Shown here piece by piece: positions 4,407 through 63,495 of a stretch of 64,000 bases of DNA. Below the pieces are notes generated by a model. The model made no database searches. It was not told the origin of the DNA and worked only from the letters and a program-made list of their open reading frames with translations. Made by a program: the position numbers and the translations under genes. Numbering within the stretch: position 1 is the stretch's first letter; every line of letters starts with the position of its first letter. Origin of the DNA: Gammaproteobacteria bacterium (lineage in GTDB: Bacteria > Pseudomonadota > Gammaproteobacteria > HK1); NCBI GenBank assembly GCA_965215295.1, contig OZ244045.1:1581518-1645517 (forward strand). Reading direction: 5' to 3'.

Positions 4407-4449
4407 CGGGGCGCTCTCCCCGGTGTCGCCGGTCGGTCGTCCGGCCGCA

Positions 4450-6432: not shown

Positions 6433-6690
6433 CGTCTCCTCCCTGTCCGTTCCCGCACCGCCGCCGGGACGCCGGAACCGGAACGATGGTCAATGATAAT
6501 CCATACGGCACGCCAGTAAAGCGGATGCTCCCGCCCGGAGCACGATGCGGCCGAGCCGGCCCGACGCGCTTGCAGCCGGAAGGTTCGGCGGGAAGGGTCG
6601 CGGCTTCGATCCGGAGCCACGCATCCCGGCGTGGCGCCGCCGCACCCGCACCGTGCACGACCGTTTCGGCGGCCCGGCCCGGCCTCGACG

Positions 6691-8631: not shown

Positions 8632-11051
8632 CGCAACCGCTCGTTGCGCGGATCGTAGGCGGCCTCGGCGAGCACCGTGGCGGCGCGCGGCTCGCCGAGG
8701 ATGTCGATGGCGAACATCGAGCCGGGTTCGGCCAGATGCGGCTCCACGTAGGCGAAGCCGAGGCTCCTGCCCGTGTAGTGGCCGTAGGCGCCGGAGGTGG
8801 TGACACCCACCACCCGACCGTCCGCGATGACCGGCTCCCCGCCGTGCGCGTCGCAGTCTCCCGGCTCGACCTCCAGGTAGACGAGCTGCGTCGCGATGCC
8901 GGCCTGCTTCACGCGCTGGATCGCGGCCCGGCCCACGAAGTCGTCCTTGTCGAGGGCGGCGAAGCGCTCCATGTCGGCCTCGACCAGGGTGATCTCGTTG
9001 GTGAGCTCCGCCCCCCAGCCCCGGTACGCCTTCTCCATGCGCAGCGAATCGACGGCATACGTCCCGAAGTCCGTGATGCCGAACTCCTCGCCCGCCGACC
9101 ACACCGCGTCGTACAGGTCGGCGAGCCGCGCCATCGGGCAGTGCAGCTCCCAGCCGAGCTCGCCGACGTAGTTCACCCGCAGGGCGCGGATCGGGATCCC
9201 GGCCGCCTCGATCTCCCGGCCGGTCAGCCAGCGGAAGCGCTCGTTGCCGAGGTCCGCCCCGGTCAGCTTCGCGAGCACCTCGCGCGAGCGCGGTCCCGCG
9301 AGCACCAGCACGCCCCAGTCGCCGGTGACGTTGGTCACGGCGACGTCGAGCCCGTCGCGCGGCCCCTGGACGAGGGTGTCCATGTCGCGGTCCTCGGCGC
9401 CCGCTCCCGACAGCACGTAGAAGCGGTCCGGGGCGAGTCTGGTGATCGTCGACTCGCCGGTGATGCGGCCCTCCGGAGACAGGTAGTGCGCGAGCACGAT
9501 GCCGCCGCTCCGCCGCGGCATGCGGTTGGCGGTGATCGTGTTCAGGTACGCCTCGGCGCCGGTCCCGGCCACGTCGTACTTCGCGAAGCTCGACAGATCG
9601 AGCACCCCGACCCGCTCGCGCACCGCGCGGCACTCCGCCGCGACGACCTCGAAGACGTTGTTGTGCCGGAAGCCGGGCTCTTCCTCCCGGCCGTCGGGCG
9701 AGAACCACTTCGGGCGCTCCCAGCCGTTCGCCTCGGTGTACACGCACCCCTTCGCGGCGAGCTTGTCGAACAGCGGCGTGACCCGCTCCCCGCGCGAGGC
9801 GGGGCGTTCCTCGCCCGGCAGGTGCAGGGCGTACATGTGCTCGTAGTCCTGGTGGGACTTCGCCTTCGTGTACTCGCCGGGGGCATGGCCGCCGAACCGG
9901 CGCGGGTCGAGGCCGGCCATGTTGATCTCGCTGTCGCCGTGCACCATCCACTGCGCGAGGTACTTGCCGCACCCCGCGCCGGCGGCGATGCCGATGGACG
10001 CGCCGCAGCACTGCCAGAAGTTGCGCAGCCCCGCGGCCGGGCCGAGCAGCGGGTTCGCGTCCGGGGTATGCGGGATCGCACCGCAGACGATGCGCTTGAT
10101 GCCGGCGTCGCGCCACATCGGAATGCGCTCCAGCGCCCGCTCGACATAGGGCGTGAGCCGGTCGAGGTTCGCCTCGAACAGCTCGTTCTCCGAATCCCAC
10201 TCCGGCCACCCGCCGCGGTGGGTCCAGCACTCGGCCGAATCCGCGGTCTCGTAGATGCCGATGAGCCCCGCCTTCTGCTCTTGGCGCAGGTACCCGGAGG
10301 TGTACGGGTCGCGCACCACCACCATCTCCTCGTCGCGCTCCAGGAACTCCCGGATCGGCTCGGTGACGAGGTAGGTGTGCTCCATGTTGGTGATCGGAAC
10401 GTCGGTGCCGGCCATCCGGCTCACTTGGCGCGCGTAGCACCCGGCCGCGTTCACGACCATCTCGCACACGATGGCGCCCCGGTCGGTGACGACCTCCCAC
10501 TCGCCGCTCCGGCGCTGCCTCAGGTCCGTCACCCGGGTGCGACGCTCGATGGTCGCGCCCATGTCGCGCGCGCCCTTCGCGAGCGCGTTGCAGCAGCCGG
10601 CCGGGTCCACGTGGCCGTCCCCGGGGGTCCAGGCCCCCGCGAGCACCCCCTCCACCGTCACGAACGGGTTGATCTGCCTGATCTTCTCGGGGTCGATGAT
10701 CTCGCAGTGAAAGCCGATGAGCTTGCCGACGCTCGCCACGTGGTGGAACCACTCCACCTCGGCCGGCTTCAGCGCGAACCGGATCCCGCCGCATCCGTGC
10801 CAGCTCACGTACTGCCCGGTCTTCTCCTCGAGCTTCGGGTAGAGCCTGACTCCGTAGTCGTGGATCTTCGCCATGTTGTAGTCGGCGATGAAGCTCGGGC
10901 ACTGGCCCGCCGCGTGCCACGTCGAGCCGGAGGTGAGCTCCCCCTTCTCCACGAGCAGGAGGTCGGTCCAGCCCTCCTCGGCGAGGTGGTAGAGCAGTCC
11001 CACTCCCATCATTCCTCCGCCGATGACGACGACTCTCGCGTGTGTCTGCAT
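8625..11051 (-). CDS. FAD-dependent oxidoreductase fused to GcvT-type aminomethyltransferase domain (dimethylglycine/sarcosine dehydrogenase-like)
   Basis: Trimmed to ATG 11051 (MQTHARVVVIGGGMMGVG, dinucleotide-binding GxGxxG), preceded by GGGAGGA. 808 aa. C-terminal half has the GcvT fold pattern. Confidence 0.9.
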   Translation of the reverse strand: MQTHARVVVIGGGMMGVGLLYHLAEEGWTDLLLVEKGELTSGSTWHAAGQCPSFIADYNMAKIHDYGVRLYPKLEEKTGQYVSWHGCGGIRFALKPAEVEWFHHVASVGKLIGFHCEIIDPEKIRQINPFVTVEGVLAGAWTPGDGHVDPAGCCNALAKGARDMGATIERRTRVTDLRQRRSGEWEVVTDRGAIVCEMVVNAAGCYARQVSRMAGTDVPITNMEHTYLVTEPIREFLERDEEMVVVRDPYTSGYLRQEQKAGLIGIYETADSAECWTHRGGWPEWDSENELFEANLDRLTPYVERALERIPMWRDAGIKRIVCGAIPHTPDANPLLGPAAGLRNFWQCCGASIGIAAGAGCGKYLAQWMVHGDSEINMAGLDPRRFGGHAPGEYTKAKSHQDYEHMYALHLPGEERPASRGERVTPLFDKLAAKGCVYTEANGWERPKWFSPDGREEEPGFRHNNVFEVVAAECRAVRERVGVLDLSSFAKYDVAGTGAEAYLNTITANRMPRRSGGIVLAHYLSPEGRITGESTITRLAPDRFYVLSGAGAEDRDMDTLVQGPRDGLDVAVTNVTGDWGVLVLAGPRSREVLAKLTGADLGNERFRWLTGREIEAAGIPIRALRVNYVGELGWELHCPMARLADLYDAVWSAGEEFGITDFGTYAVDSLRMEKAYRGWGAELTNEITLVEADMERFAALDKDDFVGRAAIQRVKQAGIATQLVYLEVEPGDCDAHGGEPVIADGRVVGVTTSGAYGHYTGRSLGFAYVEPHLAEPGSMFAIDILGEPRAATVLAEAAYDPRNERLRA

Positions 11052-11261
11052 GGCGTCCTCCCAACGATGCGGTTCTGCGGCCGGATCTGCGGCCCGGAAC
11101 GGTTCCGGCGATTTCAAAGCACACGGGCACTCCGTGCAACATCTCCCGACGTTCGGCGCCGCCGGAATGCCGCCTCGACGATGTTGCGGGAGAAAACCTC
11201 GGCCAACCCCGCCGGCAGGACGACGGGACCGCCTTGGCCGATTGGAGAGGGGCCGGGGGGC

Positions 11262-11951
11262 TCAGCCGGCCAGGCGCAACGCCCGCAACGCGACGCAGGC
11301 CGCGCCGTAGCCGTTGTCGATATTGACCACGGCCAGACCCGGCGCGCAGCTCGAGAGCGAGGCATCGAGCGCGACCCGACCGCCGACGGACACCCCGTAG
11401 CCGTTCGACGTCGGGACCGCCACCACGAGTCCCGGAACCTGTCCTCCCACCACGCTGGGCAGCGACGCCTCCATGCCCGCGACCGCGACCACCACCGGCA
11501 TCGCGCGGATCTCCTCGATCCGTTCGAGCAGGCGCCACAGGCCCGCGACGCCGACGTCGTAGATCTCCAGGGCCGGCTCGCCGTAGTACGCCAGCGTGCG
11601 TACCGCCTCCTTCGCCACGGGCACGTCGGAAGAGCCCGCGGTCACCACCGCGACCCGCGCCGGCCCGGGCGGGTCGGCGCCCGAACCCAGCACCGCGGTA
11701 CGGGAGATCGGGTCGTAGTCGAGAGCGGCGCGATGCGCGGGGGCCAGCGCATCGACCATCCCGGCGTCGAGCCGCGTGAGGAGCAACGGCCGGCTCCCCG
11801 CGATGCTTCGGGCCAGGATCGCATCGAGCTGGCGACGGGACTTCCCCGCGCAGTAGATCGATTCGTCGAAGCCGATCCTCGCGTGACGCGCGTCGTCGGG
11901 CACGACCTCCCGCTCAGGCATGACGGGGAGATCCCACGAGTGCGCGGCCAT
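11262..11951 (-). CDS. larB: nickel-pincer cofactor biosynthesis protein LarB
   Basis: PurE-like core VAVVTAGSSDVPVAKEA and C-terminal VPTSNGYG. Adjacent to larE and larC. Confidence 0.85.
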   Translation of the reverse strand: MAAHSWDLPVMPEREVVPDDARHARIGFDESIYCAGKSRRQLDAILARSIAGSRPLLLTRLDAGMVDALAPAHRAALDYDPISRTAVLGSGADPPGPARVAVVTAGSSDVPVAKEAVRTLAYYGEPALEIYDVGVAGLWRLLERIEEIRAMPVVVAVAGMEASLPSVVGGQVPGLVVAVPTSNGYGVSVGGRVALDASLSSCAPGLAVVNIDNGYGAACVALRALRLAG

Positions 11952-12025
11952 GACCCGCCGGGCACGGGTGCGGGGCGCAGTGCCCGGCGCCGACCGGCTC
12001 GACGGCGGCCGGCGTCATGCCCCGC

Positions 12026-12856
12026 TCAGGCACGATCGGCGGGCCTCAGAAATGCGCTGCCCATGCGGTAGGGCTCGAACCGGAGCATCCGCGACACCCC
12101 GGCTGCGGCCATGCACTCTCCCACCTCGCCGGCGAGCACGGCGCGGCGTCCCCCGTCGAGGGCGGAAAGCGCGGCGTCGTCGAGTTCGATCACGACCGCA
12201 TGGCTGCGTACCCGGCACCGCACGGTGGCCGCCCCGGTCGCGTCGCGGACGAGCCGCTCGCACGCATCGACGGCCTTCAGCACCTCGGGGTCGATGGCGA
12301 TGCCGGTCTCGACCCGGCTCGACAGGCACGGCGCGGCCGGCAGCTCCGTAAGGTCGTGGAGCCCGAGCCCGGCGGCGATGGCTCGCACCGCGGCTTTGCC
12401 GATGCCGCACTCGACGTAGGGGTGGCGGACCGCGTGCTCGGCCGCAGCCGCGAGCCCCGGCCGGAAGTCCCCGAGATCGTCGGTATTGGTGCCGGAGACG
12501 ATGGTCGTGCCGGCGCCCGCGAGCGGAGCAATCGTGGAGTAGAGGTTCGTCTTGCAGAAGTAGCAGCGGTTGACGGGGTTCGCGACGTAGCGCGGATCGG
12601 CAAGCTCGCCGGCGTCGAGCCGTTCGAGCCGCCATCCCTCACGGCGCGCATACCGCACGACGCGCGCCGTCGCGTCCGCGGGGACGGCGGCGGAGACCGC
12701 GTGGACCATCCTCGCCGAAGGCCCGAGCACCCGGTGCGCAACCACGGCGAGGGTCATGCTGTCCACGCCCCCGCTCACCGCCACCGCGACACGGCCGATG
12801 TCCTCCAGCACGGGTTCGATCGCGCCGATTCGAGACTCCACTCGGGAGCTACCCAT
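12026..12856 (-). CDS. larE: ATP-dependent sacrificial sulfur transferase LarE
   Basis: Trimmed to ATG 12856 after GGAGGAGG. PP-loop VAVSGGVDS and the LarE cysteine context LPAAPCLSSR. Confidence 0.85.
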   Translation of the reverse strand: MGSSRVESRIGAIEPVLEDIGRVAVAVSGGVDSMTLAVVAHRVLGPSARMVHAVSAAVPADATARVVRYARREGWRLERLDAGELADPRYVANPVNRCYFCKTNLYSTIAPLAGAGTTIVSGTNTDDLGDFRPGLAAAAEHAVRHPYVECGIGKAAVRAIAAGLGLHDLTELPAAPCLSSRVETGIAIDPEVLKAVDACERLVRDATGAATVRCRVRSHAVVIELDDAALSALDGGRRAVLAGEVGECMAAAGVSRMLRFEPYRMGSAFLRPADRA

Positions 12857-12954
12857 CCATCCTCCTCCGTGCACCACAGCCGATCGCATCGAACGTCTCG
12901 GGTGCCTTCCGGGACACCGCACCAAGGCCGTGCATCAGCGCTGCCCGTCCCCGT

Positions 12955-14286
12955 TCACACGCCGCCTCCGCCACCCTCACGCTCCGCCGAGCCCCGTACC
13001 CTCTCCCGATCCGCATGGCCGCCGGCCACCGGCGCCAGATCGTCGATCTCCGCCTTCGAGGTCCGGACGGCGCCGGGACGGCGCGCCGACTTCACCCGGA
13101 CCGGGCGGCCGTCCACCACCACTTTCGCCGAAGTGCGGGCAAGCGCCGCCCGGCTCACCTCGTGCCACCGCACGCCCAGGGTGGTGGTCTCGAGAAAGCA
13201 GGACTCGATCACCGATTCCACCGCCGCGAGACCGGCGAGAATGCGTACATGCACCGTGAGCCGCCCCTTCTTGCCGTTCATCGCGTGGCTGGACACGTCC
13301 AGAACGCCGGCGTGCTCCCGGAGCCGGTCGAGGGCAAGCGCCAGATCCTCGCCGGTCTGATCGTCGATCTCGAATTCGCACACCGCGATACGCTCCCGGT
13401 GTACGCCGGCATCGGGGCTGCCGAGCGGCTTGAACGCGAGTAGCCGCAGGACGTTGCTCGTGCCCGGAAGACGGCTGGTGCCGAATCCCGTCCCGGATCG
13501 GTCGAGACGCATCGGACCCGCAAGCGGCTCGAAGCTCGGCGCAAGGTGCGCGACGATCGCGGCGCCGGTCGGGGTGATGCGCTCTCCGTGATGGGTGTCC
13601 TGATCGACGACCATTCCGCGCAGCAGCTCCACCGTCGCCGGCGCGGGGACCGGGAGCCGCCCGTGCGCCGTCTCGACCCGGCCCTGGCCGACGGGGAGCG
13701 GCCCGCAGGACCACGAGGCGCCGAGACGCTCGATCAGCCAGGCCGCGCTCACGATGTCCGCAATCGAGTCGAAGGCCCCGACCTCGTGGAAGCTCACGTC
13801 GTCGACGGGTACGCCGTGCACCGCGGATTCCGCCGCGGCCAGCCGCGCGAACATGTCGAGAGCCCGGTCGCGCACCCCGGCGTCGAGAGCGGACGCCTCC
13901 AGCAGGGTGCGAATGTCGCGGTGGAGATGATGCCCGCGGGCGGGCTCGCGATCGGGGCCGCCACCATGACCCATCCGAACGTCGCGACGCACGACGAGAT
14001 CGCCGCGGGCGGGCTCGCGATCGAGGCCGCGACCATGACCGTCGCCATCGCGCCCGTGCGGCTCGTGCTCCGCGCGGCTCGCCTCGTGCACCACGAACCG
14101 CGATCCGGCCAGTGCGTCGCCGGCGTGATCGAGGCGCTCGACGGTGGCGATCGCGTCGAGTCCGGCGTGCTCCAGGGCCGCAACGAGCGCCGGCTCGAGC
14201 TCGGGCCACGCGTCGAGCACCGCGGCGGCGAACATGTCGCCCGCGATTCCGCCGACGGGATCCATCCGGATGTGCATGGGCGACAT
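12955..14286 (-). CDS. larC: nickel insertion protein LarC (single polypeptide)
   Basis: Start ATG 14286 (MSPMHIRMDPVGGIAGDMF). 443 aa with a His-rich internal segment. Alternative start at 14277. Confidence 0.85.
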   Translation of the reverse strand: MSPMHIRMDPVGGIAGDMFAAAVLDAWPELEPALVAALEHAGLDAIATVERLDHAGDALAGSRFVVHEASRAEHEPHGRDGDGHGRGLDREPARGDLVVRRDVRMGHGGGPDREPARGHHLHRDIRTLLEASALDAGVRDRALDMFARLAAAESAVHGVPVDDVSFHEVGAFDSIADIVSAAWLIERLGASWSCGPLPVGQGRVETAHGRLPVPAPATVELLRGMVVDQDTHHGERITPTGAAIVAHLAPSFEPLAGPMRLDRSGTGFGTSRLPGTSNVLRLLAFKPLGSPDAGVHRERIAVCEFEIDDQTGEDLALALDRLREHAGVLDVSSHAMNGKKGRLTVHVRILAGLAAVESVIESCFLETTTLGVRWHEVSRAALARTSAKVVVDGRPVRVKSARRPGAVRTSKAEIDDLAPVAGGHADRERVRGSAEREGGGGGV

Positions 14287-14380
14287 TGTAAGTCGCACGC
14301 GGACGCCGCACATTCGGGATGCTTCGCGTCGGGAGGCACGGTGCGCCGTCGCGCCGGCCCGCATCCGCGTTCGGTCAAGG

Positions 14381-14630
14381 GGTGACGGGACAGGCTCGAT
14401 TGCGAAGCAGCGCACCCTGCTGGTGCTGGTACTGGTGGCGATGCCGGGTGACGGGACGGCTCGATTGCGAGGCAGCGTACCCTGCTGGTGCTGCTGGCGA
14501 TGCTGAGTGACGGGACAGCTCGATTGCGAGGCAGCAGCGCACCTGTTGGTACTGGTACTGCTGCTGGTACTGCTGCTGGCAGTGCCGGGTGGCCGGGACG
14601 GACTCGCTCGCGAGGCGGCACGCCAGCCGA
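14381..14630. repeat. about 60-66 bp tandem repeat (3-4 copies) filling the larC-larA divergent intergenic region
   Basis: Units begin GGTGACGGGAC(A)GGCTCGATTGCGA(A/G)GCAGCG at 14381, 14447 and 14506; a degenerate copy begins near 14588. Contains CTG/GTG triplet runs. Confidence 0.8.
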
Positions 14631-14674
14631 CGCGGATACACTGTGGAACGCGGGCCGGGACCCGGGAGGCAGCG

Positions 14675-15985
14675 ATGATCGTGGAACTGGAGTACGGCCG
14701 CGGGCGGCTTCCGGTGCGCATGCCCGACACCTGCGAAGTCACGGTGCTGCGCAAGAACCCGCTGCCGCTCGTCGACGACGTGCCGGGCGCCGTCGGACAG
14801 GCGTTCGCCGAGCCCACCGGGGCGCCGCCGCTGGCAGCCCTGGCCGAGGGCAAGCGCTCCGCCTGCATCCTCATATGCGACATCACTCGCCCGGTGCCGA
14901 ACCACGTGTTCCTCGGGCCGATGATCCGCATCCTCCTCGACCGCGGGATCCCCGCCCGGAACATCACCGTCCTGGTCGCCACCGGGCTGCACCGCCCCAA
15001 CGAAGGCGAGGAGCTCGCGGAGCTCATCGGTGATCCGTGGGTGCTCGACACGGTCCGGGTCGAGAACCACTTCGCGCGCGACGCCGCGGCCCACGTCGAC
15101 CTTGGCGTTACCGCGACCCGCGCCACCCCGGTGAAGCTCGACCGGCGGTTCGTCGACGCCGAGCTGCGGATCGCGACCGGGCTGGTGGAGCCGCACTTCA
15201 TGGCCGGCTGGTCGGGCGGGCGCAAGGTCGTCGCCCCCGGGGTGGCGCACGAGGACACCATCCGCACCTTCCACAACGCCCGGTTCATGGAGGACCCGGG
15301 CGCGATCCAGTGCAACCTCGACGCCAATCCGCTGCACGAGGAGCAGCTCGAGATCATGCGCATGCTCGGCGATGTCCATGCCGTCAACACCGTCATCGAC
15401 GAGCGGCGGCGGCTGTGCTTCGTGAACTTCGGCGAAATCGTGGAGAGCCATCTCGAGGCGGTCCGGTTCGTGCACGACTCCTGCGCCGTGCCCGTCGACC
15501 GGAAGTTCGGGACCGTGCTCACCTCCGCCGCGGGCTACCCGCTCGACAAGACCTACTACCAGACCGTGAAGGGCATGGTGACGCCGATCGACATCCTCGC
15601 ACCCGGCGCCAGTCTCATCATCGCCTCCGACTGCTCGGAGGGGATTGGCTCGCCGCAGTACCGCGAGGCCCAGCGCCGGCTCGTCGCGAACGGCCCCGAC
15701 GGATTCCTCGCGGAGATCCTCGACAAACCGCTCGCGGACATCGACGAATGGCAGACCGAGATGCTGCTCAAGCCGATGCGTCGTGCCGGCATCCACCTGT
15801 ATTCCCGGGGCCTGCCGGCCGAGGACCGGGCGCTGACCGGGATAAACGTCATCGATTCGATCGAGGATGCGCTCGTCCGGTCCATCGAGTCGTCGGGAGA
15901 TCCCGCGGTCGCGGTGATTCCGGAAGGACCGTACGTGGTGCCCCGGTTTGCAGGCCCCGCGCCGACGACGAACACCGCGCAGTGA
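14675..15985 (+). CDS. larA: LarA family nickel-dependent 2-hydroxyacid racemase/epimerase homolog
   Basis: ATG 14675 after GGGAGG. Motifs CDITRPVP, ATGLHRPNEG, VEPHFMAGWSGGRKV match the LarA His/His/Lys (pincer-tethering) positions as I recall them. Confidence 0.85.
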   Translation: MIVELEYGRGRLPVRMPDTCEVTVLRKNPLPLVDDVPGAVGQAFAEPTGAPPLAALAEGKRSACILICDITRPVPNHVFLGPMIRILLDRGIPARNITVLVATGLHRPNEGEELAELIGDPWVLDTVRVENHFARDAAAHVDLGVTATRATPVKLDRRFVDAELRIATGLVEPHFMAGWSGGRKVVAPGVAHEDTIRTFHNARFMEDPGAIQCNLDANPLHEEQLEIMRMLGDVHAVNTVIDERRRLCFVNFGEIVESHLEAVRFVHDSCAVPVDRKFGTVLTSAAGYPLDKTYYQTVKGMVTPIDILAPGASLIIASDCSEGIGSPQYREAQRRLVANGPDGFLAEILDKPLADIDEWQTEMLLKPMRRAGIHLYSRGLPAEDRALTGINVIDSIEDALVRSIESSGDPAVAVIPEGPYVVPRFAGPAPTTNTAQ

Positions 15986-38006: not shown

Positions 38007-38963
38007 ATGACCGCCATGCCGGTCGATCCGCAGATTCGGCAGGTCATCGATGCGTTGGCCGCGTCGGATTTCGCACCCGTCCACCTTCAGACCCCGGAGG
38101 AGGCGCGGGCGCAGTACGTACGGATGGTGGAGGCGCGCGGCATCGTGCCGGCACCGGTCGGGGCGATCGAGGAGCGGACGATTCCGGGTCCCGCCGGCGA
38201 GTTGCCGGTGCGCATCTACCGCCCCGCTCCCGACACCGGAGACCTGCCGGCGCTCGTGTACTTCCACGGCGGCGGGCATGTCGTCGGGAACCTCGACACC
38301 CACGATGCGGTTGCGCGCAACCTGTGCAACGGCGCCGGGTGCGTGGTGGTGTCCGTCGACTACCGGCTCGCGCCGGAGGACAAGTTTCCCGCCGCGGCGG
38401 AGGACGCCCTCGCGGCGGTGCGATGGTGCGCGGAGCGCGGCTCCGGGATTGGCGTCGATCCGCTGCGGATGGCGGTCGGGGGCGACAGTGCGGGCGGCAA
38501 TCTCGCGGCGGTGGCGGCGCTGATGGCACGCGACGCCGGCGGCCCCGCCATCCGGCTCCAGGTGCTCGTCTATCCGGTGGTCGACTACGGCTGCGACACG
38601 GAGTCGTACCGGACCTATGCGGACGGCTACGGAATGCTCGATGCCCGGTCGATGCGGTGGTTTCGCGACCACTACCTGCGCGACGAAGCGGACCGGCTCG
38701 ACTGGCGGGCGGCGCCGCTGCGCGCCGCCGACCTCTCCGGCCTGCCGCCGGCGCTCGTTCTCACCGCCGAGCGCGACATCCTCCATGACGAGGGCGAGGC
38801 GTACGCGCAGCGGCTGCGGGCGGCGGGAGTGGACGTCGAGTACCGGGACTGCGAGGGCATGATTCACGGATTCTTCACGATGGCGCCGATGATCGACGGC
38901 GCGGTGCGGGCCCAAAAGCTGGTGTGCGACGCGATGACGCGCGCGTTCGCACGAACCGCTTGA
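38007..38963 (+). CDS. alpha/beta hydrolase fold-3 esterase/lipase (HSL family)
   Basis: HGGG oxyanion motif (YFHGGGHVVG), nucleophile elbow GGDSAGGN, C-terminal HGF. Confidence 0.9.
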   Translation: MTAMPVDPQIRQVIDALAASDFAPVHLQTPEEARAQYVRMVEARGIVPAPVGAIEERTIPGPAGELPVRIYRPAPDTGDLPALVYFHGGGHVVGNLDTHDAVARNLCNGAGCVVVSVDYRLAPEDKFPAAAEDALAAVRWCAERGSGIGVDPLRMAVGGDSAGGNLAAVAALMARDAGGPAIRLQVLVYPVVDYGCDTESYRTYADGYGMLDARSMRWFRDHYLRDEADRLDWRAAPLRAADLSGLPPALVLTAERDILHDEGEAYAQRLRAAGVDVEYRDCEGMIHGFFTMAPMIDGAVRAQKLVCDAMTRAFARTA

Positions 38964-38995
38964 ATCCCGGCCTGGTATGGCCGTACCGTGAATTC

Positions 38996-39271
38996 ATGGC
39001 CACCGTCACCATAAAGTCGACCTGTTCGCTCGACGCCGAATCCGTGCGGAAGCTGGAAGGCTTGGCGAAGCACTGGAACACGTCCAGGTCCGCCGCGCTC
39101 CGGCGCGCCATTCACACCGCGGCGCGACAGGCGCACTCCGACGACAACGAAGCGCTTGCGGCGCTCGACCGCTTGCAGAGCCGGCTTGCGCTGGATCGAG
39201 GAACCGCCGGAATCTGGGCGGACGAGGTGAGGCGGGAACGCCGGGCGGCGGCGGAACGCAACGCCTCCTGA
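38996..39271 (+). CDS. ribbon-helix-helix type antitoxin (VapB-like)
   Basis: 91 aa. KSTCSLDAESVRKLEGLAKHWNTSRSAALRRAI fits an RHH fold. Followed 8 nt later by a PIN-like start. Confidence 0.6.
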   Translation: MATVTIKSTCSLDAESVRKLEGLAKHWNTSRSAALRRAIHTAARQAHSDDNEALAALDRLQSRLALDRGTAGIWADEVRRERRAAAERNAS

Positions 39272-39279
39272 TCCCGGGA

Positions 39280-39335
39280 ATGATCCACCTCGACAGGAGC
39301 TTTCTGATCCGCGGACTCACCGGAGGCTCTCGGTC
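39280..39335 (+). pseudogene. 5-prime remnant (about 18 codons) of a PIN-domain vapC toxin gene, truncated by a low-GC insertion
   Basis: ATG 39280 gives MIHLDRSFLIRGLTGGSR (VapC-like MIxLDTSxLI with the first acidic residue). Homology stops where GC drops and the REase stop lies (39334). Confidence 0.45.
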
Positions 39336-40005
39336 ATCCAGCCCAAATGTCATCCTTCGACTCCCAATACTTCCTTACCATGTTGAATCGATCGATTCTG
39401 GTTCGAATCTTAAGGATTTCTTTTGGATAGAATTCGGACATCATGTTACATAGCTGCAACATCCACTTCCTTCGTGAATATCCATCGATCACGCGAATGT
39501 CGTTGGAGTTCGCGATCTGAATCTGACCCCAGCCCAGTGCACCTATCGTGAGGCACTTCCAGTCCAGGAATTCGATCGGAGAGAACAGAACCTCAGAGAC
39601 AGTGACCTTCGTACCTTCAACCGAGTATTTGATGATAATTGGAGAGAAGACATTGGCATCCGATTCGTAAAGTTCAGACAGCCGCTTCACCGATGTGAGG
39701 TTGGGCATGTTGAACTGGGTATCCTTCCTGTGCGTCTTGACGTCTACTACGGAGTAAAAGCCTTCCGTGTCGGTGAAGGCCAAATCGGCCATGGCGCGGC
39801 GAGCAAAATTTTTCGAATATTCGTCACACCAATTCCCGAGAAAAGTGTCGAATTCATCTGCTACCAGTGATTGAAGTGCATCGCCAACCGCTCTCGGGCT
39901 ACTCGCCGTTTGCGGCGACAGGAAATCTCGTGAAGAGTTGATATGCCTCTTGATCTTGGAGGCCACCCCGCGATGATGACCTTCGTAATAGAATCTCGAT
40001 TTCAT
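39334..40005 (-). CDS. putative type II restriction endonuclease (family not recognised)
   Basis: Trimmed to ATG 40005, which overlaps the methyltransferase stop (ATGA). 223 aa. Possible PD-(D/E)xK core MADLAF...SVVDVKTH. Low GC by eye. Confidence 0.55.
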   Translation of the reverse strand: MKSRFYYEGHHRGVASKIKRHINSSRDFLSPQTASSPRAVGDALQSLVADEFDTFLGNWCDEYSKNFARRAMADLAFTDTEGFYSVVDVKTHRKDTQFNMPNLTSVKRLSELYESDANVFSPIIIKYSVEGTKVTVSEVLFSPIEFLDWKCLTIGALGWGQIQIANSNDIRVIDGYSRRKWMLQLCNMMSEFYPKEILKIRTRIDRFNMVRKYWESKDDIWAG

Positions 40006-41006
40006 GAGAACAGGCCGTCCTGACGATCGATCGGTTTGGCCCTGCTCGGCCGATTGGAAAACGAGTTTCTTTCCCAGAATATGCCGTCTGCATATCCCTG
40101 GATTGTCGGATCGTCTCTGGCGGCAGCGATCCGTTTCAGCGTCCAGCACAGGTACTCGACGTTGATTTCGACTCCGCACCAGCGTCTTGACAATTTTTCT
40201 GCTACAACCGCGGTTGTTCCACTGCCAAGAAACGGATCAAACACGAAATCTCCCTTCCTGGAGCTCGCCAGTATCAATTTGGCGATCAATTTCTCGGGTT
40301 TCTGAGTGGGATGGTCGGTATTCTCCGGCATCGACCAGAATGGAACTGTCAAATCGGTCCAAATGTTCGACGGATGGGTCAGGCGATAGTTGCCTTCCTT
40401 TTCCCGTCGCCAATCTTTCGGCTCTCCTTTGATTTTGTAAGGAGCGAGAACTTTGCGTTTCAACTTCACCGCCTCGACATCGAAATAATATCTCTCCGAT
40501 TTTGTGCAGAACCAGATGTCTTCCGTGTTGTTCTTCCAGTTCATCTTTGCACCCCGTCCTTTCTCCCGTTCCCAAGTGATTCGATTTCTGATGTGAAGTT
40601 TCGACTCCAGGATCGGAAAGACAAGTGTGGATGTCCTCCAGTCCGAACACACGTAGAGCGTGGCGTTCGGCTTCATCATCGGAATCAGCAAGTCGACGAT
40701 TTCCTCGAACCAGGATCGATATTCATCGTCTTCTTTTCTTCTGAACGAATTTCCATTGAAGTTCTTGGATAGATTGTACGGAGGATCCAAAATCAGGAGA
40801 TCTACGAATTCGGAAGGAAGAAATTTCGCTATTTCGAGAATATTTCCTGCGACGAGACGTCTTTCCAGATCTTGCGGGGCGACCGCCGTATCCAACCGCA
40901 TGATGTCACGAGAAAATCGGACGCTTTCTTCTTCCGTGCACGAAAGCGTTTGATTTCTGGGAGCACGTTTTCGCATGTGAGTGACCGTGTTGAACTGTGG
41001 TTTCAT
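40002..41006 (-). CDS. DNA methyltransferase, N4/N6 beta class (DPPY)
   Basis: LLILDPPYNL catalytic motif, then HPTQKPEKL and VFDPFLGSGTT (beta-class order, CcrM/HinfI-like architecture). Start ATG 41006; alternatives 41030 GTG and 40976. Confidence 0.85.
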   Translation of the reverse strand: MKPQFNTVTHMRKRAPRNQTLSCTEEESVRFSRDIMRLDTAVAPQDLERRLVAGNILEIAKFLPSEFVDLLILDPPYNLSKNFNGNSFRRKEDDEYRSWFEEIVDLLIPMMKPNATLYVCSDWRTSTLVFPILESKLHIRNRITWEREKGRGAKMNWKNNTEDIWFCTKSERYYFDVEAVKLKRKVLAPYKIKGEPKDWRREKEGNYRLTHPSNIWTDLTVPFWSMPENTDHPTQKPEKLIAKLILASSRKGDFVFDPFLGSGTTAVVAEKLSRRWCGVEINVEYLCWTLKRIAAARDDPTIQGYADGIFWERNSFSNRPSRAKPIDRQDGLFS

Positions 41007-41009
41007 GGT

Positions 41010-41046
41010 ATCGCAGCCTCGCCACTTCACTCTTCGAGGCTGCGAT
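41010..41046 (-). promoter_or_regulatory. perfect 12-bp inverted repeat between the UGSC gene stop and the methyltransferase start
   Basis: ATCGCAGCCTCG (41010-41021) and CGAGGCTGCGAT (35-46), 13-nt loop. On the minus-strand mRNA the 3-prime arm holds the only SD-like GAGG and ends 3 nt before the ATG. No U-tract. Confidence 0.4.
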
Positions 41047-41060
41047 CCGGTGTATTCCGG

Positions 41061-41585
41061 TCAGCCGGCGGTGAGCTTCTCCACGATCTCCTCCAGCGCC
41101 TCATCGGCGATGGCCCGAATCTCGTCGTCGGTGCGGTTCTGGATCGGATGCGGGACCCAGACGATCGCGGGCTCGTAGCCAAGCGACGCGGACTGCGCGG
41201 CGGCCGCCTGCCGGAACGCGGTGGTCGCGATCATCACGCCGGGGATCCCTCGTTCATCGAGGTCGAGCATGTCATGCACACTGCACGACGTGCACGAGCC
41301 TCAGTCGGAGAGGGCATCGACGACGACATCGACCTCCTCGGCGATGGTCTGCGAGAGGTCGACCGGCGCGGTGCGGGTGTTGGTGGGCTTCGCGTAGCGC
41401 CTCACAGCGAGCCCACGTCCGACGAAGTGCGATTCGAGCCGGTCGAGAAACGTGTTCCCGCGGGCCTTGCCGATGTCGAGCAGCCCGAGGGTCAGGCCGT
41501 CGAGCGCCGGCGGCGGCGGGCGGCGCCCGCGCCGGACCGGCGAGGACTCCGCTGTCGGGTCGAGCAACCGGATGCCTTCATTCAT
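41061..41585 (-). CDS. UGSC family selenoprotein (in-frame UGA at 41303-41301 read as selenocysteine)
   Basis: Track ORFs 41301..41834 and 41061..41279 share one frame, separated only by TGA. Read-through gives ...VVDALSD-U-GSCTSCSVHDMLDLDERGIPGV. Start ATG 41585 after GGGAGG; alternative 41621. Confidence 0.7.
41272..41297 (-). other. candidate bacterial SECIS hairpin
   Basis: mRNA positions +4 to +29 after UGA: UCGUGCACGU / loop CGUGCA / GUGUGCAUGA. 10-bp stem including 3 G-U pairs, with G in the apical loop. Confidence 0.4.
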
Positions 41586-41703
41586 GGCTTCAACCTCCCG
41601 CATGGTTTGAATGCCTTCCATGGCTTCATCTCCTCCTTGACGGGGGTGCCGCTGAAGGAACCGCCCGCGGTCCATCACCCCCGAGACCCGCCGATTCCCT
41701 GCG

Positions 41704-42135
41704 TTACTCCTGTGGGTACTGTATATCCGGAGTTTCGTTTTCGCGTCCGTCCTGGCACATCGGAATCTTGATGGTGTGCGGATAGATGCGGTGTGCATCC
41801 GTGTGTGCATCCACAATTGCACCGATTCCGCCACCGAAGATGATGTTTCCCCAGATCATGCCTCCCATCTTCGAATCCACCGCATTTACGTAGACCCGCC
41901 CGTCGCGTGTCCTGCACGTGATATGCAGCGGATCATCCGATTTGGGGATGGTCAGAGTCCCTGGCACCTGTACCGAATACTGTCCCTTCTTGTGCTCCAC
42001 CGTGCACTGTGTGCCGTCCGGACATTCCGGGGCGTCGAAATTGATCGTGGACATGTCCTCGTTCACGATGCTCGAACATCCGCCAAGGAGCGCACTTGCC
42101 ACCACCACCCCTGCAATCAAGTTTCTCGGTTTCAT
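41704..42135 (-). CDS. lipoprotein, unknown function
   Basis: Trimmed to ATG 42135 after GGAAGGAG. Lipobox ALLGGC. 143 aa with Gly-rich GNIIFGGGIGAIVD. GC lower than flanks by eye. Confidence 0.75.
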   Translation of the reverse strand: MKPRNLIAGVVVASALLGGCSSIVNEDMSTINFDAPECPDGTQCTVEHKKGQYSVQVPGTLTIPKSDDPLHITCRTRDGRVYVNAVDSKMGGMIWGNIIFGGGIGAIVDAHTDAHRIYPHTIKIPMCQDGRENETPDIQYPQE

Positions 42136-42284
42136 GTTGCTCCTTCCCTTCTTTCGTTCGGATGTGTTGTTCTTCCGTGACGGCACACGAGCCATGCCAT
42201 GATGCATCCGGGAATCACTCCGCCGGCGAGTGTCACCCCGATCACCGCCGCTGCTGCATACCATCGTCTCTTGCCTTGATTCAT
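42132..42284 (-). CDS. 50-aa single-TM small protein
   Basis: Not in track (under 60 aa). ATG 42284 after GGAGAGAAG gives MNQGKRRWYAAAAVIGVTLAGGVIPGCIMAWLVCRHGRTTHPNERREGAT. Stop overlaps the lipoprotein ATG (ATGA). Confidence 0.5.
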   Translation of the reverse strand: MNQGKRRWYAAAAVIGVTLAGGVIPGCIMAWLVCRHGRTTHPNERREGAT

Positions 42285-42296
42285 GTCTTCTCTCCT

Positions 42297-42554
42297 TCAG
42301 CTCGAAGATGGCGCGGTAGTGGAGCGGGACGCGTTCATGCCATGTCGCCGACCCGGGGACAACGCCTCGCCAGTGACAGGATGCGCCATCACCGGCAACG
42401 CGAGCAAACGGCTGCCGAAATACTCCTCCGCTGACCACAACCGCGATCGCGGATAGACGGCTCCTTCCATATCGGCCAACCCCTCTTTGGCCGCCGACGC
42501 CCGGGCCGTTGCGCCGTCCAAGCGCCTGAGCGTGCCGCCTTCACGGCAATTCAC
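42297..42554 (-). CDS. hypothetical 85-aa ORF
   Basis: GTG 42554 overlaps the stop of the thioredoxin-fusion gene (GTGA). Ends 13 nt before the 50-aa ORF. No family recognised; intermediate third-position GC. Confidence 0.25.
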   Translation of the reverse strand: MNCREGGTLRRLDGATARASAAKEGLADMEGAVYPRSRLWSAEEYFGSRLLALPVMAHPVTGEALSPGRRHGMNASRSTTAPSSS

Positions 42555-59725: not shown

Positions 59726-61981
59726 CTACGGCGCCGTCCCGTCGAAGACGTAGATCGGGCTCGACCAGATCTGGTGCCCGTCCTCGCAGACGATGTAGAC
59801 GTAGAGCGCGTTGTCGACACCCTTCTCGAGCGTGACCCGGCGCTCGATCCCGACCCTCGTGTGGGGGTTGTCGTCGGGCATGCGGAACACCCGGATGCGG
59901 CGCTGGATGCCGCCGGCGTCGTGGACGACGTCCTCGCGGCCGATGTCCGCGATCGGGATCGCGGCCTTGACCAGGGCGGTGTCGATGCGCAGGGTGCCGG
60001 CGCGCGGGTCGGCGAGCCAGGCATCGAAGCCGCCGAAGCCGCCGGTGGTGAGCGCGGTCCACTCGACCGCGTCCGGCGCGGTCTGCTCGAACCGCTTGTC
60101 GAGGTTGTAGTGGTTGATCGGTGCGAGCCGCTCGAAGGCGTTGCCTTCGAGGGTGGCGCCGCCGTCCCAGATCGTCTGCCGGCCGCGCCCGCGGTACTCC
60201 GAACCCTCCCAGACGACCCGGATGCGGCGGCCGAGGTCCGCTTCGGCGAACGGCCGGAACACTTCCAGGGTCTTCAGGGCGTTGCGGATCTCGATGCGTT
60301 CGATCGGCGCCTGCGTCACCGCCTCGATCGTGAACGTCACCTGCGCGTCGTCCGAACGGACCACGTCGCCCATCATCGCCTCCCGCGCCATCTCGCTCGT
60401 GGTCGGACCCAGGTTCGGATCGTCGGAGAAGCGCTCCGCGTCGTTGTCGAACCGCGCGCGGGTGTCGAGGAGCATCCGGCAGCCGGTGGTGCCGTAGAAG
60501 TGGCGCGCCCGGAAGCAGTCCGCGAGCGCCTGGCGCGTGAGGTCCGTGGCCAGCAGGCAGGTGAGGCCCCCGTAGGCGCCGAAGGACGTCGCGCCGGGAT
60601 GGCTCGCGCCGGGCCGGCCCTTGTGCCCGTCGCTGTTCGCGCAGATGCCGACCCGGTAGCCCTGCTCCATCGCGTCGTGCACCAGCCACTCGAACGTGCC
60701 CCACGCGGAGTGCACCTCCACCGCGCGCTCGAGGCGCGCATCGTGGCTCATCCTGATGTCCGCGTACCGCCCGCCGATATGGGCGAACACCACGCAGTCC
60801 TCGTCCTTGAGGGCTTCGAACAGGTCCTCGGCGGAGTTGGCGTCGGTCTCGAGGTCGGAGAGGTCGTCGACCAGTGCGTGCGAGGAGCGGTGGATCTGGC
60901 GACCCTCGTCGAGGAAGAGCACGTTGCGGTCGCCACCCAGCCCGGTGTTGCCCGACCACTCGTAGCCGGGGAACGCGATGAACCGCCCGTCGTCGTTGAA
61001 CTCGGCGGTGAGGTCGTTCAGGTGGTTCCAGAACGCGGTGGTGATCTGGAAGTCGTTGCCCTGGTGGCTGCACACGTCGAGGAACGCCCGGTCGCGCGCG
61101 AACTCGAAGAATTCGCGGGCGGAGTTGGTTCCGATGGTCTCCTCGGACTGGCCGTGCAGATCGCCCCAGTACGGCTTCAGCGTCATCGATTCCGAGATGC
61201 GCAGCGGGTTCGAGCGGGCGAGCACGGCGCCGTCGGGACCGAGCATCTCGATCCGGAGGTCGCCCGGTGCTCCGACCGAGAGATCGTCGACCACCACCGC
61301 GAACCCGCCCGGCGTGAACCGCACCGTTTCGGGCAACCCGCCGACCGGCAGGTTCGAGCGCAGGCTCGCCACCAGATCGCACTGGTCGCTCGGATTGCCC
61401 CAAGGATCCTCGCCCTTCAGGCACAGGCGGAACCGCTCTCCGGCGACCCGCTCGGTGGGCAGGACCGCCTTCCACCGCACCGGCGGCGCGGGAACGATGG
61501 CGATCTCCGGCTGCACCGGCAGCTCGACGTAGTTGCAGGTGGCGATGGCGTCGACCAGCACCCGGAACTCGAACGTCGATTCGCAGAACGTCTGCAGCCG
61601 CATCCCCGGCGACCCCTGCCGCGGGTCGCCGAAGCGCACGATGATCCGGTCCCCCTCGCGCAGGAACCCGCGCACCACCTGGATGTAGAGCGTCTTGTCC
61701 CACGGGCGGATGTTCATCTTCCCCTCGTAGCGCACGTCGAGCACCGCTCCGTTGCTCGCCTCCGCGGTGACGTAGTTGGGCGCGCCCGGGTCGTCGAATT
61801 GCGGCTTGCCCATGTCGCCCGCGAACCGGTGCGCGATCTTGATGCTGCCGGTGTCGTCGATGCCGAAGTAGCCGGCGGTGTAGGTGAGGGTGAAGGATTG
61901 GAACGACCCCGCTTCGAAGCGTCCCGTGGGGTCGATGACGGCGTTGCCCATGCGGTGGGGCAGGTACGTGGAATGGGGCAT
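59726..61981 (-). CDS. DUF3604 domain protein (PHP-like metal-dependent hydrolase fold)
   Basis: Trimmed to ATG 61981 after GGAGAC. 751 aa. YWGDLHGQSE...HQGNDF...FPGYEWSGN...SDGHKGRPGAS fits my memory of DUF3604. Confidence 0.8.
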   Translation of the reverse strand: MPHSTYLPHRMGNAVIDPTGRFEAGSFQSFTLTYTAGYFGIDDTGSIKIAHRFAGDMGKPQFDDPGAPNYVTAEASNGAVLDVRYEGKMNIRPWDKTLYIQVVRGFLREGDRIIVRFGDPRQGSPGMRLQTFCESTFEFRVLVDAIATCNYVELPVQPEIAIVPAPPVRWKAVLPTERVAGERFRLCLKGEDPWGNPSDQCDLVASLRSNLPVGGLPETVRFTPGGFAVVVDDLSVGAPGDLRIEMLGPDGAVLARSNPLRISESMTLKPYWGDLHGQSEETIGTNSAREFFEFARDRAFLDVCSHQGNDFQITTAFWNHLNDLTAEFNDDGRFIAFPGYEWSGNTGLGGDRNVLFLDEGRQIHRSSHALVDDLSDLETDANSAEDLFEALKDEDCVVFAHIGGRYADIRMSHDARLERAVEVHSAWGTFEWLVHDAMEQGYRVGICANSDGHKGRPGASHPGATSFGAYGGLTCLLATDLTRQALADCFRARHFYGTTGCRMLLDTRARFDNDAERFSDDPNLGPTTSEMAREAMMGDVVRSDDAQVTFTIEAVTQAPIERIEIRNALKTLEVFRPFAEADLGRRIRVVWEGSEYRGRGRQTIWDGGATLEGNAFERLAPINHYNLDKRFEQTAPDAVEWTALTTGGFGGFDAWLADPRAGTLRIDTALVKAAIPIADIGREDVVHDAGGIQRRIRVFRMPDDNPHTRVGIERRVTLEKGVDNALYVYIVCEDGHQIWSSPIYVFDGTAP

Positions 61982-62324
61982 GGCGGGGGTCTCCAGGCAG
62001 GGCTCGTCCGTGACGGACCGGGAGGGTACCGGCAATCGCGTTCGCGGACACGCTCGCGCCGGCGGGCGGATGCGGCGGAGGCGCGGTACGGGCTCTCCCC
62101 GCTCGGGGACGCCGGCAAGCCGGTCGACTGCGTCATCGCAGTGCCGAGCGAAGGCGGTGACGTCTCGACGAGGTAGCGGGACGGAGCCGGCGGCGAAGCG
62201 GGCGAAAGCACGGCGCAATGTCCGACGCGACCCGGTCACGTGCGATGCCGTCCGTGGTACACGGGGTGAAACATGGCCCGGAGCACGGGGAAACCGCCTG
62301 CAAAACGAACCGTTGAAGAAATGA

Positions 62325-62414
62325 TGGCGGAGAGGGAGGGATTCGAACCCCCGGTCCCCCGGAAGGGACAACTGATTTCGAGTCAGCCCCGTTCGGCCGC
62401 TCCGGCACCTCTCC
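62325..62414 (-). tRNA. tRNA-Ser (anticodon CGA), CCA encoded
   Basis: GGAGAGGTGCCGGAGCGG...GCTGACTCGAAATCAGT...long variable arm...GGGGGTTCGAATCCCTCCCTCTCCGCCA. 7-bp acceptor, anticodon loop CUCGAAA, T-loop GTTCGAATC. Confidence 0.9.
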
Positions 62415-62448
62415 GGGCGCGAAACGGACGTCCCGCGCGAGGGGCTGT

Positions 62449-62477
62449 ATTGTAGGCAATCGGCGGTCCCGCGGGAA
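62449..62477 (-). promoter_or_regulatory. candidate promoter for tRNA-Ser
   Basis: TACAAT (-10) at 62454-62449 on the minus strand, about 35 nt upstream of the mature 5-prime end. Weak -35 TTCCCG. Confidence 0.3.
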
Positions 62478-62590
62478 CGTCCGGAACATCGACGACTCGT
62501 CCATGCATCGATGCCGTGGAGGTGAACGGTCTCATGTCGGCGCACGGGAATGTCCGGGATTTCGACGACTCGTCCATGCGTGCCGATGCA
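62473..62590. repeat. 73-bp-period direct repeat upstream of tRNA-Ser
   Basis: GGGAA(C/T)GTCCGG(A/G)A..TCGACGACTCGTCCATGC at 62473 and 62546. Confidence 0.75.
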
Positions 62591-62742
62591 CGCATCCGGT
62601 GCCGGGAACGGCGCCGATTCCGCGATCGATGCCCGGGAGCCCGTGGATGCGGTGACGGTGCATGACGGCCACATGGAGGGCGGCGCGCGCCGGAATCCCG
62701 CTCGCGGCACCGGTGGGTGTCCGGACGGCACGGACCCGCGGA

Positions 62743-63495
62743 TCAGTCCGCTGCGGGTCGGTCTGCTGCGGGTCGGTCCGCTGCGGGTCGGTCTGCTGCG
62801 GGTCGGTCCGCTGCGGGTCGGTCCGCTGCGGGTCGCCCCGGCGCCGGCGCTTCGATCAGCACCCTGGTGCCCGCCTCCACCCGGTCGAACAGATCGATGA
62901 CGTCGTCGTTGCGCATGCGGATGCAGCCATGGGAGCCGGGGCGCGTGATGTCGACGTCGTCCGGACAGCCGTGGATGTAGATGTAGCGGCGCATGGTGTC
63001 GACGCGGCCCAGGCGGTTCCGGCCGGGCTCGGTGCCGGAGAGCCACAGGATCCGGGTGAGGATCCAGTCGCGCCCGGGGTGCGCGGCCCCGAGCGCCGGC
63101 GTGTGGCGTTCACCCGTCGGTCTCCGGCCGACGAAGACGGTGCCCGGATCGGCGCCGGCGCCGATCCGGGCGCGGATCACGTGCCATCCCCGCGGAGTGC
63201 ATTCACTGCCTTCCTGCTCGCCGGGGCCGTTGGCGGCGGTGGACACGGGATAGGTCCTGCGCACCTCGCCGTGTACGTACAGCTCCAGGCGCTGGCGATC
63301 GATGTCGATGTGCACGAGGGTGCCGGCCGCGCGAGCGTGTTCCGGAGCGTGGCTGGCCCGGGCATTCGTGCCTCCCGCTTGCGCGAGGGCGCCGTGCGCA
63401 CCGGCGCGTTCCGGAGCGGGCGCCGGCTCCGGGCATTCCGCGCCGGAGGCAGCGCGAAAGGCGGCAGCGAACTTCTTCGAGGTCTTGTTCGGCAT
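62743..63495 (-). CDS. L,D-transpeptidase (YkuD domain) with C-terminal (RPAAD)x6 tail
   Basis: Trimmed to ATG 63495. YIYIHGCPDD...GSHGCIRMRNDDV is the YkuD catalytic His/Cys motif. 250 aa. Confidence 0.85.
   Translation of the reverse strand: MPNKTSKKFAAAFRAASGAECPEPAPAPERAGAHGALAQAGGTNARASHAPEHARAAGTLVHIDIDRQRLELYVHGEVRRTYPVSTAANGPGEQEGSECTPRGWHVIRARIGAGADPGTVFVGRRPTGERHTPALGAAHPGRDWILTRILWLSGTEPGRNRLGRVDTMRRYIYIHGCPDDVDITRPGSHGCIRMRNDDVIDLFDRVEAGTRVLIEAPAPGRPAADRPAADRPAADRPAADRPAADRPAAD
62746..62835. repeat. 15-bp tandem repeat x6, in frame, immediately before the stop codon
   Basis: GTC(C/T)GCTGCGGGTCG x6, encoding RPAAD x6. Confidence 0.95.

Follow-up and report, generated by a model that had tools for sequence, protein, structure and literature searches.

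The stretch of DNA analysed here (termed the window) is 64 kb long and is an ordinary piece of chromosome from a high-GC gammaproteobacterium, with polA, dxs, ptsI, hemC, gshB, a larABE cluster and liv-type transporter genes; the organism's relatives, together with the sequencing runs that contain it, point to sponge-associated communities. On the minus strand of the window a reading frame extends from an ATG at 41585 to a stop codon at 41063-41061 with a single interruption, which is a TGA at 41303-41301. When this TGA is read as selenocysteine (Sec or U), the frame yields a joined product of 174 aa (...VVDALSD-U-GSCTSCSVHDMLDLDERGIPGVMIATTAF). A preliminary description of this DNA had proposed just such a product by joining ORFs 41301..41834 and 41061..41279 as one minus-strand frame across the TGA, and both the ORF list and a translation from the ATG agree with it; the spacing to the second ORF, however, had been put at 18 nt, whereas the distance from the TGA to the GTG start of that ORF is 21 nt (7 codons). 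The features of the gene and of its surroundings are collected in Table 1.

Table 1. Features of the UGSC locus, in window coordinates
Feature	Coordinates	Strand	Details and basis
UGSC-family gene, predicted selenoprotein	41061..41585	-	174 codons including one predicted Sec codon, plus TGA stop at 41063-41061
In-frame UGA, candidate Sec codon	41301..41303	-	Residue 95; Cys-column alignment, 40/80 genomes, four DNA runs
Shine-Dalgarno sequence GGGAGG	41594..41599	-	8 nt 5' of ATG 41585; direct reading of the sequence
SECIS-like helix, 19 bp	41258..41303	-	Fold energy, pairing in Sec forms, contrast between Sec and Cys forms
Apical hairpin, 8-bp stem	41289-41271	-	Starts 11 nt after the UGA
GUG apical loop	41281-41279	-	19 nt after the UGA
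P475, conserved partner gene, 475 aa	42551..43978	-	Synteny, alignment A3, AF2 and Foldseek
Strain-specific insertion, 951 bp, GC 0.59	41600..42550	-	Not in conspecific contigs L081/L082 (96-98% nucleotide identity)
Lipoprotein-like ORF, 143 aa, inside the insertion	42135-41704	-	No family match
Imperfect 19/20-bp direct repeats flanking the insertion	42567-42549, 41599-41580	-	Regenerate the Shine-Dalgarno sequence and start codon

That standard annotation would split this gene, as was also claimed at the outset, holds for Prodigal-type gene calls, which on near-identical ENA contigs give two fragments of 94 aa and 69 aa. The PGAP pipeline of NCBI should give this gene its correct name, because a dedicated model (NF041046) exists; hence the statement that the gene is missed by standard annotation is limited to those pipelines that do not handle Sec.

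Scored with Cys substituted at the UGA, the joined product matches two curated models over their full length and above their cut-offs, namely the NCBIfam model NF041046, 'UGSC family (seleno)protein' (140.9 bits against a cut-off of 125, profile positions 2-147 of 147), and the Pfam model PF24696 (138.1 bits against a cut-off of 25, profile positions 2-171 of 172). A database search returned 542 homologues, and the matches listed are full-length Cys forms that carry PF24696 and that share at most 63% identity with the window protein. Membership in the UGSC family, as first proposed, is thereby upheld, and the literature agrees with the accompanying account of the family as one that came from ocean-metagenome selenoproteome surveys and whose function is uncharacterised: UGSC proteins were among the most abundant GOS selenoproteins, where they numbered 255 Sec forms as against 21 Cys homologues (PMC2398784), and reviews of 2022 and 2026 describe the family as functionally uncharacterised. 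Compared with the family as catalogued (NF041046, PF24696; PMC2398784), the window gene is alike in its length (~175 aa), in its full-length HMM match above cut-off, in its D-U/C-G-S-C-T-S-C motif with Sec at the Cys column, and in its SECIS-like element right after the UGA; there is no essential difference, except that here a 951-bp insertion parts the gene from its usual upstream partner. Judged by its sequence, the gene is a genuine Sec-form member of an already catalogued family--that is, one more correctly recognised member, for which a split gene call is corrected.

At the position of the UGA, all 24 aligned Cys homologues have the invariant Cys of the D-C-G-S-C-T-S-C motif; in this alignment D94, G96, S97, C98, T99, S100 and C101 are invariant as well, and the homologues align on each side of the UGA, with both halves conserved. 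A scan of species-representative genomes yielded 80 loci, half of which (40) have TGA at this codon and half (40) TGC or TGT. The closest relatives, which are Gammaproteobacteria MAGs of ~70% GC with 84-90% amino acid and 85-92% nucleotide identity, keep both the TGA and an intact downstream frame to the equivalent stop in 13 of 13 intact cases. Within the set of 14 sequences made up of the window gene and these 13 relatives, both halves of the gene are under purifying selection: pN/pS is 0.23 upstream of the TGA and 0.17 downstream, which indicates that the 3' part is subject to selection at the protein level. Moreover, synonymous diversity within the same set is halved at codons 96-108, where the hairpin described below is located, as is expected if an RNA structure overlaps the coding sequence. 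At the level of RNA, sponge metatranscriptome contigs of relatives (85-95% similar) span the TGA.

These patterns bear directly on whether the TGA is a true nonsense mutation, leaving behind a decaying pseudogene or two unrelated fragments. Such a mutation would account for the two fragments reported by gene callers that do not handle Sec, and Sec machinery was not found in the 64-kb window; yet the closest relatives share this TGA, as do 40 of the 80 species-level genomes, the downstream region has a pN/pS of 0.17 and contains no more stops or frameshifts, and the TGA-bearing forms have a conserved hairpin that is particular to them. A nonsense mutation is accordingly regarded as very improbable. 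In a fourteenth close relative, L006 (6001-6628), the TGA is likewise kept and ~106 extra bases in the 5' half break the UGSC frame.

Directly downstream of the UGA, the preliminary description had placed a 10-bp hairpin that starts 4 nt after this codon. Its SECIS-like position and G-containing loop are borne out, but the structure itself is an interrupted 19-bp helix; it starts right at the UGA, and its apical stem of 8 bp follows 11 nt after that codon. The 47 nt that start with the UGA fold with an energy of -26.2 kcal/mol (z = -4.2), and none of 200 shuffled sequences is as stable. Published constraints for bacterial SECIS (bSECIS) elements call for a loop of 3-9 nt with a G in its first two positions, an upper stem of 4-16 bp, a distance of 16-37 nt between UGA and loop and an MFE of -7.5 kcal/mol or lower (PMC13188914). 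The window hairpin lies within every one of these limits, having a GUG loop (3 nt), an 8-bp stem, a spacing of 19 nt and the folding energy just given. When the window is searched against Rfam at gathering thresholds, the sole match is to tRNA-Ser, with no match to a SECIS family.

The conservation of this hairpin is particular to the TGA-bearing members of the family. Across 38 distinct Sec-form sequences, 89.9% of the cells of the 19-pair helix are paired, as against 27-40% when the partner is slid. Both-side changes that keep the helix occur at two of the 19 pairs (18-48, GC/CG; 31-35, AU/GC), the others being invariant or changed on one side, as one would expect of a hairpin within a coding sequence; covariation has little scope here, since these bases also specify conserved residues. 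When the 40 Sec genes are set against the 40 Cys genes, the apical pairs are formed in 95% of the former and in 65% of the latter, and the mean MFE is -21.2 kcal/mol versus -10.2 kcal/mol at equal GC (p = 4e-14). Codon choice follows the same division: all 40 Sec forms use TCG for Ser100, TGC for Cys101 and GAC for Asp105, whereas the Cys forms use all synonymous codons, and at residue 103 most Sec forms have Leu or Val (UUG/GUG), while most Cys forms have Thr.

It is conceivable that the UGA terminates translation and that the downstream 72-79 residues are made separately, through re-initiation at GTG 41279, so that the gene would give rise to two polypeptides. The location of this GTG, 7 codons after the TGA, would suit such an arrangement. 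Within most Sec forms, however, the corresponding codon specifies Leu (TTG/CTG) or Thr (ACG), for which reason GTG 41279 is not a conserved start; the Cys homologues are single chains; and the UGSCTSC motif bridges the junction, while the fold model places both halves within one beta-sheet. Re-initiation is thus accorded only a few chances in a hundred at most--as slight a standing as that of a nonsense mutation--and reading through the UGA as Sec remains the preferred interpretation.

A still more improbable alternative, to which next to no weight is given, is that an error of sequencing or assembly has put TGA in place of TGC or TGT, or else that UGA has been reassigned to a standard amino acid. 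No evidence specifically favours either version. As regards error, contigs from four independent DNA runs cover the codon with no variants listed there, and independently assembled relatives have the same TGA. As regards reassignment, TGA is the normal terminator of ~30 of the 36 high-GC3 ORFs in the window, from which it follows that UGA is not generally reassigned. The position of this particular TGA is also singular. A scan of both strands of the 64-kb window for TGA codons flanked on each side by 45 stop-free codons with coding-type GC3/GC2 picked up, besides two ordinary gene boundaries (LivG/LivH and LivH/LivM), this one site as the sole TGA with coding signal on both sides; hence the scan reveals no selenoprotein candidate in the window other than the UGSC gene.

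The window contains none of the genes selA, selB, selC and selD, and its only tRNA gene is that for Ser-CGA, so that actual Sec insertion by the source organism is something that we infer from sequence comparisons. The machinery can be seen in a relative, L057, which is a MAG of the Burkholderiales whose UGSC gene is of the Sec form: here selA, selB and tRNA-Sec form an operon at 8935-12274, 2.4-6 kb downstream of that gene; the encoded SelA matches PF03841 with 520 bits and SelB matches TIGR00475 with 389 bits. The runs containing the source organism include tRNA-Sec-like and selA-like contigs at comparable depth, which are not assignable to one genome. Comparing the selA-selB-selC region of L057 with these runs gave many partial matches at several depths; these, being likewise unassignable to one genome, were dropped as evidence.

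Upstream of the UGSC gene the window encodes a second conserved protein of 475 aa (termed P475), whose homologues directly precede UGSC at 77 of the 78 loci where the gene order can be assessed. These loci span the Pseudomonadota (Gamma-, Alpha- and Betaproteobacteria), Acidobacteriota, Bacteroidota and Actinomycetota (Acidimicrobiia), and often the two genes overlap stop-to-start (GTGA/ATGA). At the sole locus without a preceding P475 gene (L014), UGSC (6001-6522) adjoins a divergently oriented homologue of SBP56, the 56-kDa selenium-binding protein (PF05694), at 3827-5941 on the minus strand.

P475 has more than 8000 homologues, and among the 120 listed a Pfam domain occurs only in P0203, which is a frameshift artefact. 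The P475 alignment (A3) has a mean column identity of 67%, with Cys 13, 16, 109, 148, 192, 206, 233 and 304 invariant or nearly so. Within the AF2 model, approximately residues 1-95 adopt a thioredoxin fold with a CPTC motif, as Foldseek also indicates. The remaining ~370 aa have no relative in Pfam, NCBIfam, PDB sequences or Foldseek-PDB; the full model retrieves thioredoxins for the N-terminal domain only, with nothing convincing beyond it, and a search of PDB sequences with UGSC and P475 profiles gave only marginal glutaredoxin/thioredoxin matches. No match to the GrdE/PrdA models was found in the 35 P475 members scanned, and no description of P475 was found in the literature searched.

The protein P0203 (569 aa, with a UGSC domain) was considered as a natural P475-UGSC fusion and rejected: it derives from a frameshifted P475 gene (L083, 3001-4710), where an alternative frame runs into the UGSC frame and the whole is called as a 569-aa 'fusion'. 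Both this frameshift and the extra bases in L006 may reflect either mistakes of long-read assembly or genuine disruption of the genes. A 'UGSC/Unknown_1' fusion appears in a figure of the 2008 survey (PMC2398784).

Unlike conspecific contigs L081/L082 (which were reached through P0122, a protein 99% identical to the window P475), where P475 and UGSC overlap, the window carries an insertion exactly at the P475/UGSC junction. The depth of this insertion in runs X1-X4 is a fraction of the depth of its flanks, and a contig joint skips it; the insertion is therefore polymorphic in the population. Given its location between the two genes, co-transcription and coupling of P475 and UGSC may be altered in the window strain.

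For structural comparison, an AF2 model of a Cys homologue (P0001, 63% identical to the window protein; pLDDT 90) was used. It shows a five-fold beta-alpha sandwich with five parallel strands, flavodoxin-like in arrangement, in which the Sec/Cys residue is at the N-terminus of helix 3. The top Foldseek matches are flavodoxin, TIR and corrinoid-binding domains (TM 0.4-0.5), and no thioredoxin folds occur among the top 50. A thioredoxin-like fold had been suggested for UGSC in 2008 (PMC2398784), in contrast to the present model; because the matches are of flavodoxin type and include no thioredoxins, that suggestion is not supported, and UGSC proteins are predicted instead to be flavodoxin-like. 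With the small UxxC/CxxU selenoproteins (Trx-like, Prx-like and SelW-like), UGSC shares a helix whose N-terminus bears a Sec two residues away from a Cys, and a thiol/selenol redox role is presumed in both; the difference lies in the five-strand parallel flavodoxin-like sandwich of the P0001 model.

A more distant relationship links UGSC to the selenoprotein-B subunits of Stickland reductases (GrdB/GrdF/GrdH and PrdB; TIGR01917, TIGR01918, PF07355). Individually, 37 of 43 family members match the GrdB model, with 30 matching GrdF, nine GrdH and eight a general selenoprotein-B model; the matched region comprises residues ~80-154, aligned to model positions 332-401 of 431. Furthermore, U95-G-S-C98-T-S-C101 in the window protein corresponds to the UxxCxxC motif of GrdB (PMC13188914). 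The likeness thus consists of a shared UxxCxxC motif and of an HMM similarity, weak yet reproducible, across a stretch of ~70 residues that surrounds the Sec; in addition, each protein would be the Sec-bearing subunit of a multi-protein system for which thioredoxin-type recycling is expected. Owing to these matches and the motif, UGSC can be read, at the level of sequence, as a remote homologue of the selenoprotein-B Sec domain that stands on its own as a protein.

UGSC nevertheless lies outside the selenoprotein-B family, since its scores are far below cut-off and since the GrdE, PrdA and GrdA partners are absent: the window protein scores 19.7 bits (~20, E ~1e-4) in the GrdB-type comparison, as against a cut-off of 602, aligns over residues 80-154 only and so falls short of a full-length match, and has no match to PF07355 at E <= 0.01. 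UGSC is also shorter (174 aa, versus ~240 for PrdB and ~435 for GrdB). In contrast to Stickland systems, no GrdE/PrdA pyruvoyl proprotein, GrdA, GrdC or other reductase subunit is encoded near UGSC, whose neighbours are P475, an LLM oxidoreductase, a hydrolase and a restriction-modification-like island; and whereas Stickland hosts are amino-acid-fermenting anaerobes, those of UGSC are aerobic marine, soil and sponge-associated bacteria.

Taken as a whole, the best explanation, which is held with high confidence, is that 41585-41061 (minus strand) is a single intact UGSC gene, that its UGA is translated as Sec by means of a SECIS element, and that its product is probably a redox subunit working with P475. 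The comparative evidence suggests that UGA 41303-41301 would be decoded as selenocysteine and not as a stop: the downstream mRNA would fold into a SECIS hairpin of the bacterial kind, whose apical stem has 8 bp and whose G-U-containing triloop lies 19 nt past the UGA; by the established bacterial mechanism this hairpin would recruit SelB-GTP-Sec-tRNA(Sec) to the ribosome. The resulting U-G-S-C-T-S-C centre is predicted to lie at the start of helix 3, this motif being shared with a putative remotely homologous domain of GrdB, GrdF, GrdH and PrdB. UGSC would then be the subunit responsible for selenol/thiol redox activity in an enzyme of two proteins, the other being P475; within the latter, the thioredoxin domain (CPTC) would recycle a selenenyl-sulfide and the Cys-rich C-terminal domain of ~370 aa would bind the substrate. 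A selenol/thiol redox relay inside a P475-UGSC complex may be considered the most economical mechanism. What the sequences show is membership in the family, the Sec/Cys column, a conserved SECIS, purifying selection acting on the two halves, and the synteny; Sec insertion in the source organism, a physical and functional coupling of UGSC with P475, and the chemistry are inferred from these.

From this perspective a further proposal can be made, though it is speculative and its correctness is rather doubtful: UGSC and P475 might constitute a previously undescribed two-subunit selenoenzyme, in which UGSC is a free-standing version of the Stickland selenoprotein-B Sec domain and in which P475 provides the substrate site as well as a thioredoxin of its own. 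If this were true, such an enzyme would occur widely among aerobic bacteria, whether marine, soil-dwelling or symbiotic, and reductive chemistry of the GrdB/PrdB type would be carried outside anaerobic fermenters. More generally, the analysis provides three leads on an abundant family: a near-obligatory partner that lies outside the domain libraries, a predicted flavodoxin-like fold, and a link to GrdB/PrdB. Cultured carriers of Cys forms, namely Sphingosinicella xenopeptidilytica and Rhodoplanes roseus DSM 5909, are among the matches, and this makes the partner hypothesis genetically testable.

Several further observations concern expression of the family and other parts of the window. Within metatranscriptome runs X22-X24 and X30, the summed contig depth over 41264-41311 (i.e., a 48-nt block comprising the UGA and SECIS) reaches up to ~100-fold that of the rest of the gene, with numerous loose contig ends on both sides of the block; owing to this spike, the exact UGA-SECIS block appears to be common to many distinct UGSC genes that are expressed in communities of sponges.

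Directly downstream of UGSC, a low-GC (~0.50) island at 39334-41030 (minus strand) encodes an N6/N4 DNA methyltransferase (PF01555) and a 281-aa ORF with no family assigned to it, and hence looks like a restriction-modification cassette; it is also present in conspecific contigs, where an IS66 element is inserted beside it, and is not found in more distant relatives. At 38924-39271 (plus strand) there is a small ribbon-helix-helix ORF (CopG-type, PF01402), which resembles an antitoxin or regulator and whose position is conserved in several relatives. Elsewhere, a 1127-codon open frame with a DUF3604 match (59726-63109, minus strand) overlaps the gene for tRNA-Ser(CGA) at 62325-62414 on the same strand, so that the true start of the gene must lie 3' of the tRNA, the 1127-codon frame being a high-GC artefact. 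Finally, a nickel-pincer cofactor cluster occupies 11262-15985; it consists of a LarB-LarE pair and, after it, a LarA-family racemase gene in divergent orientation.
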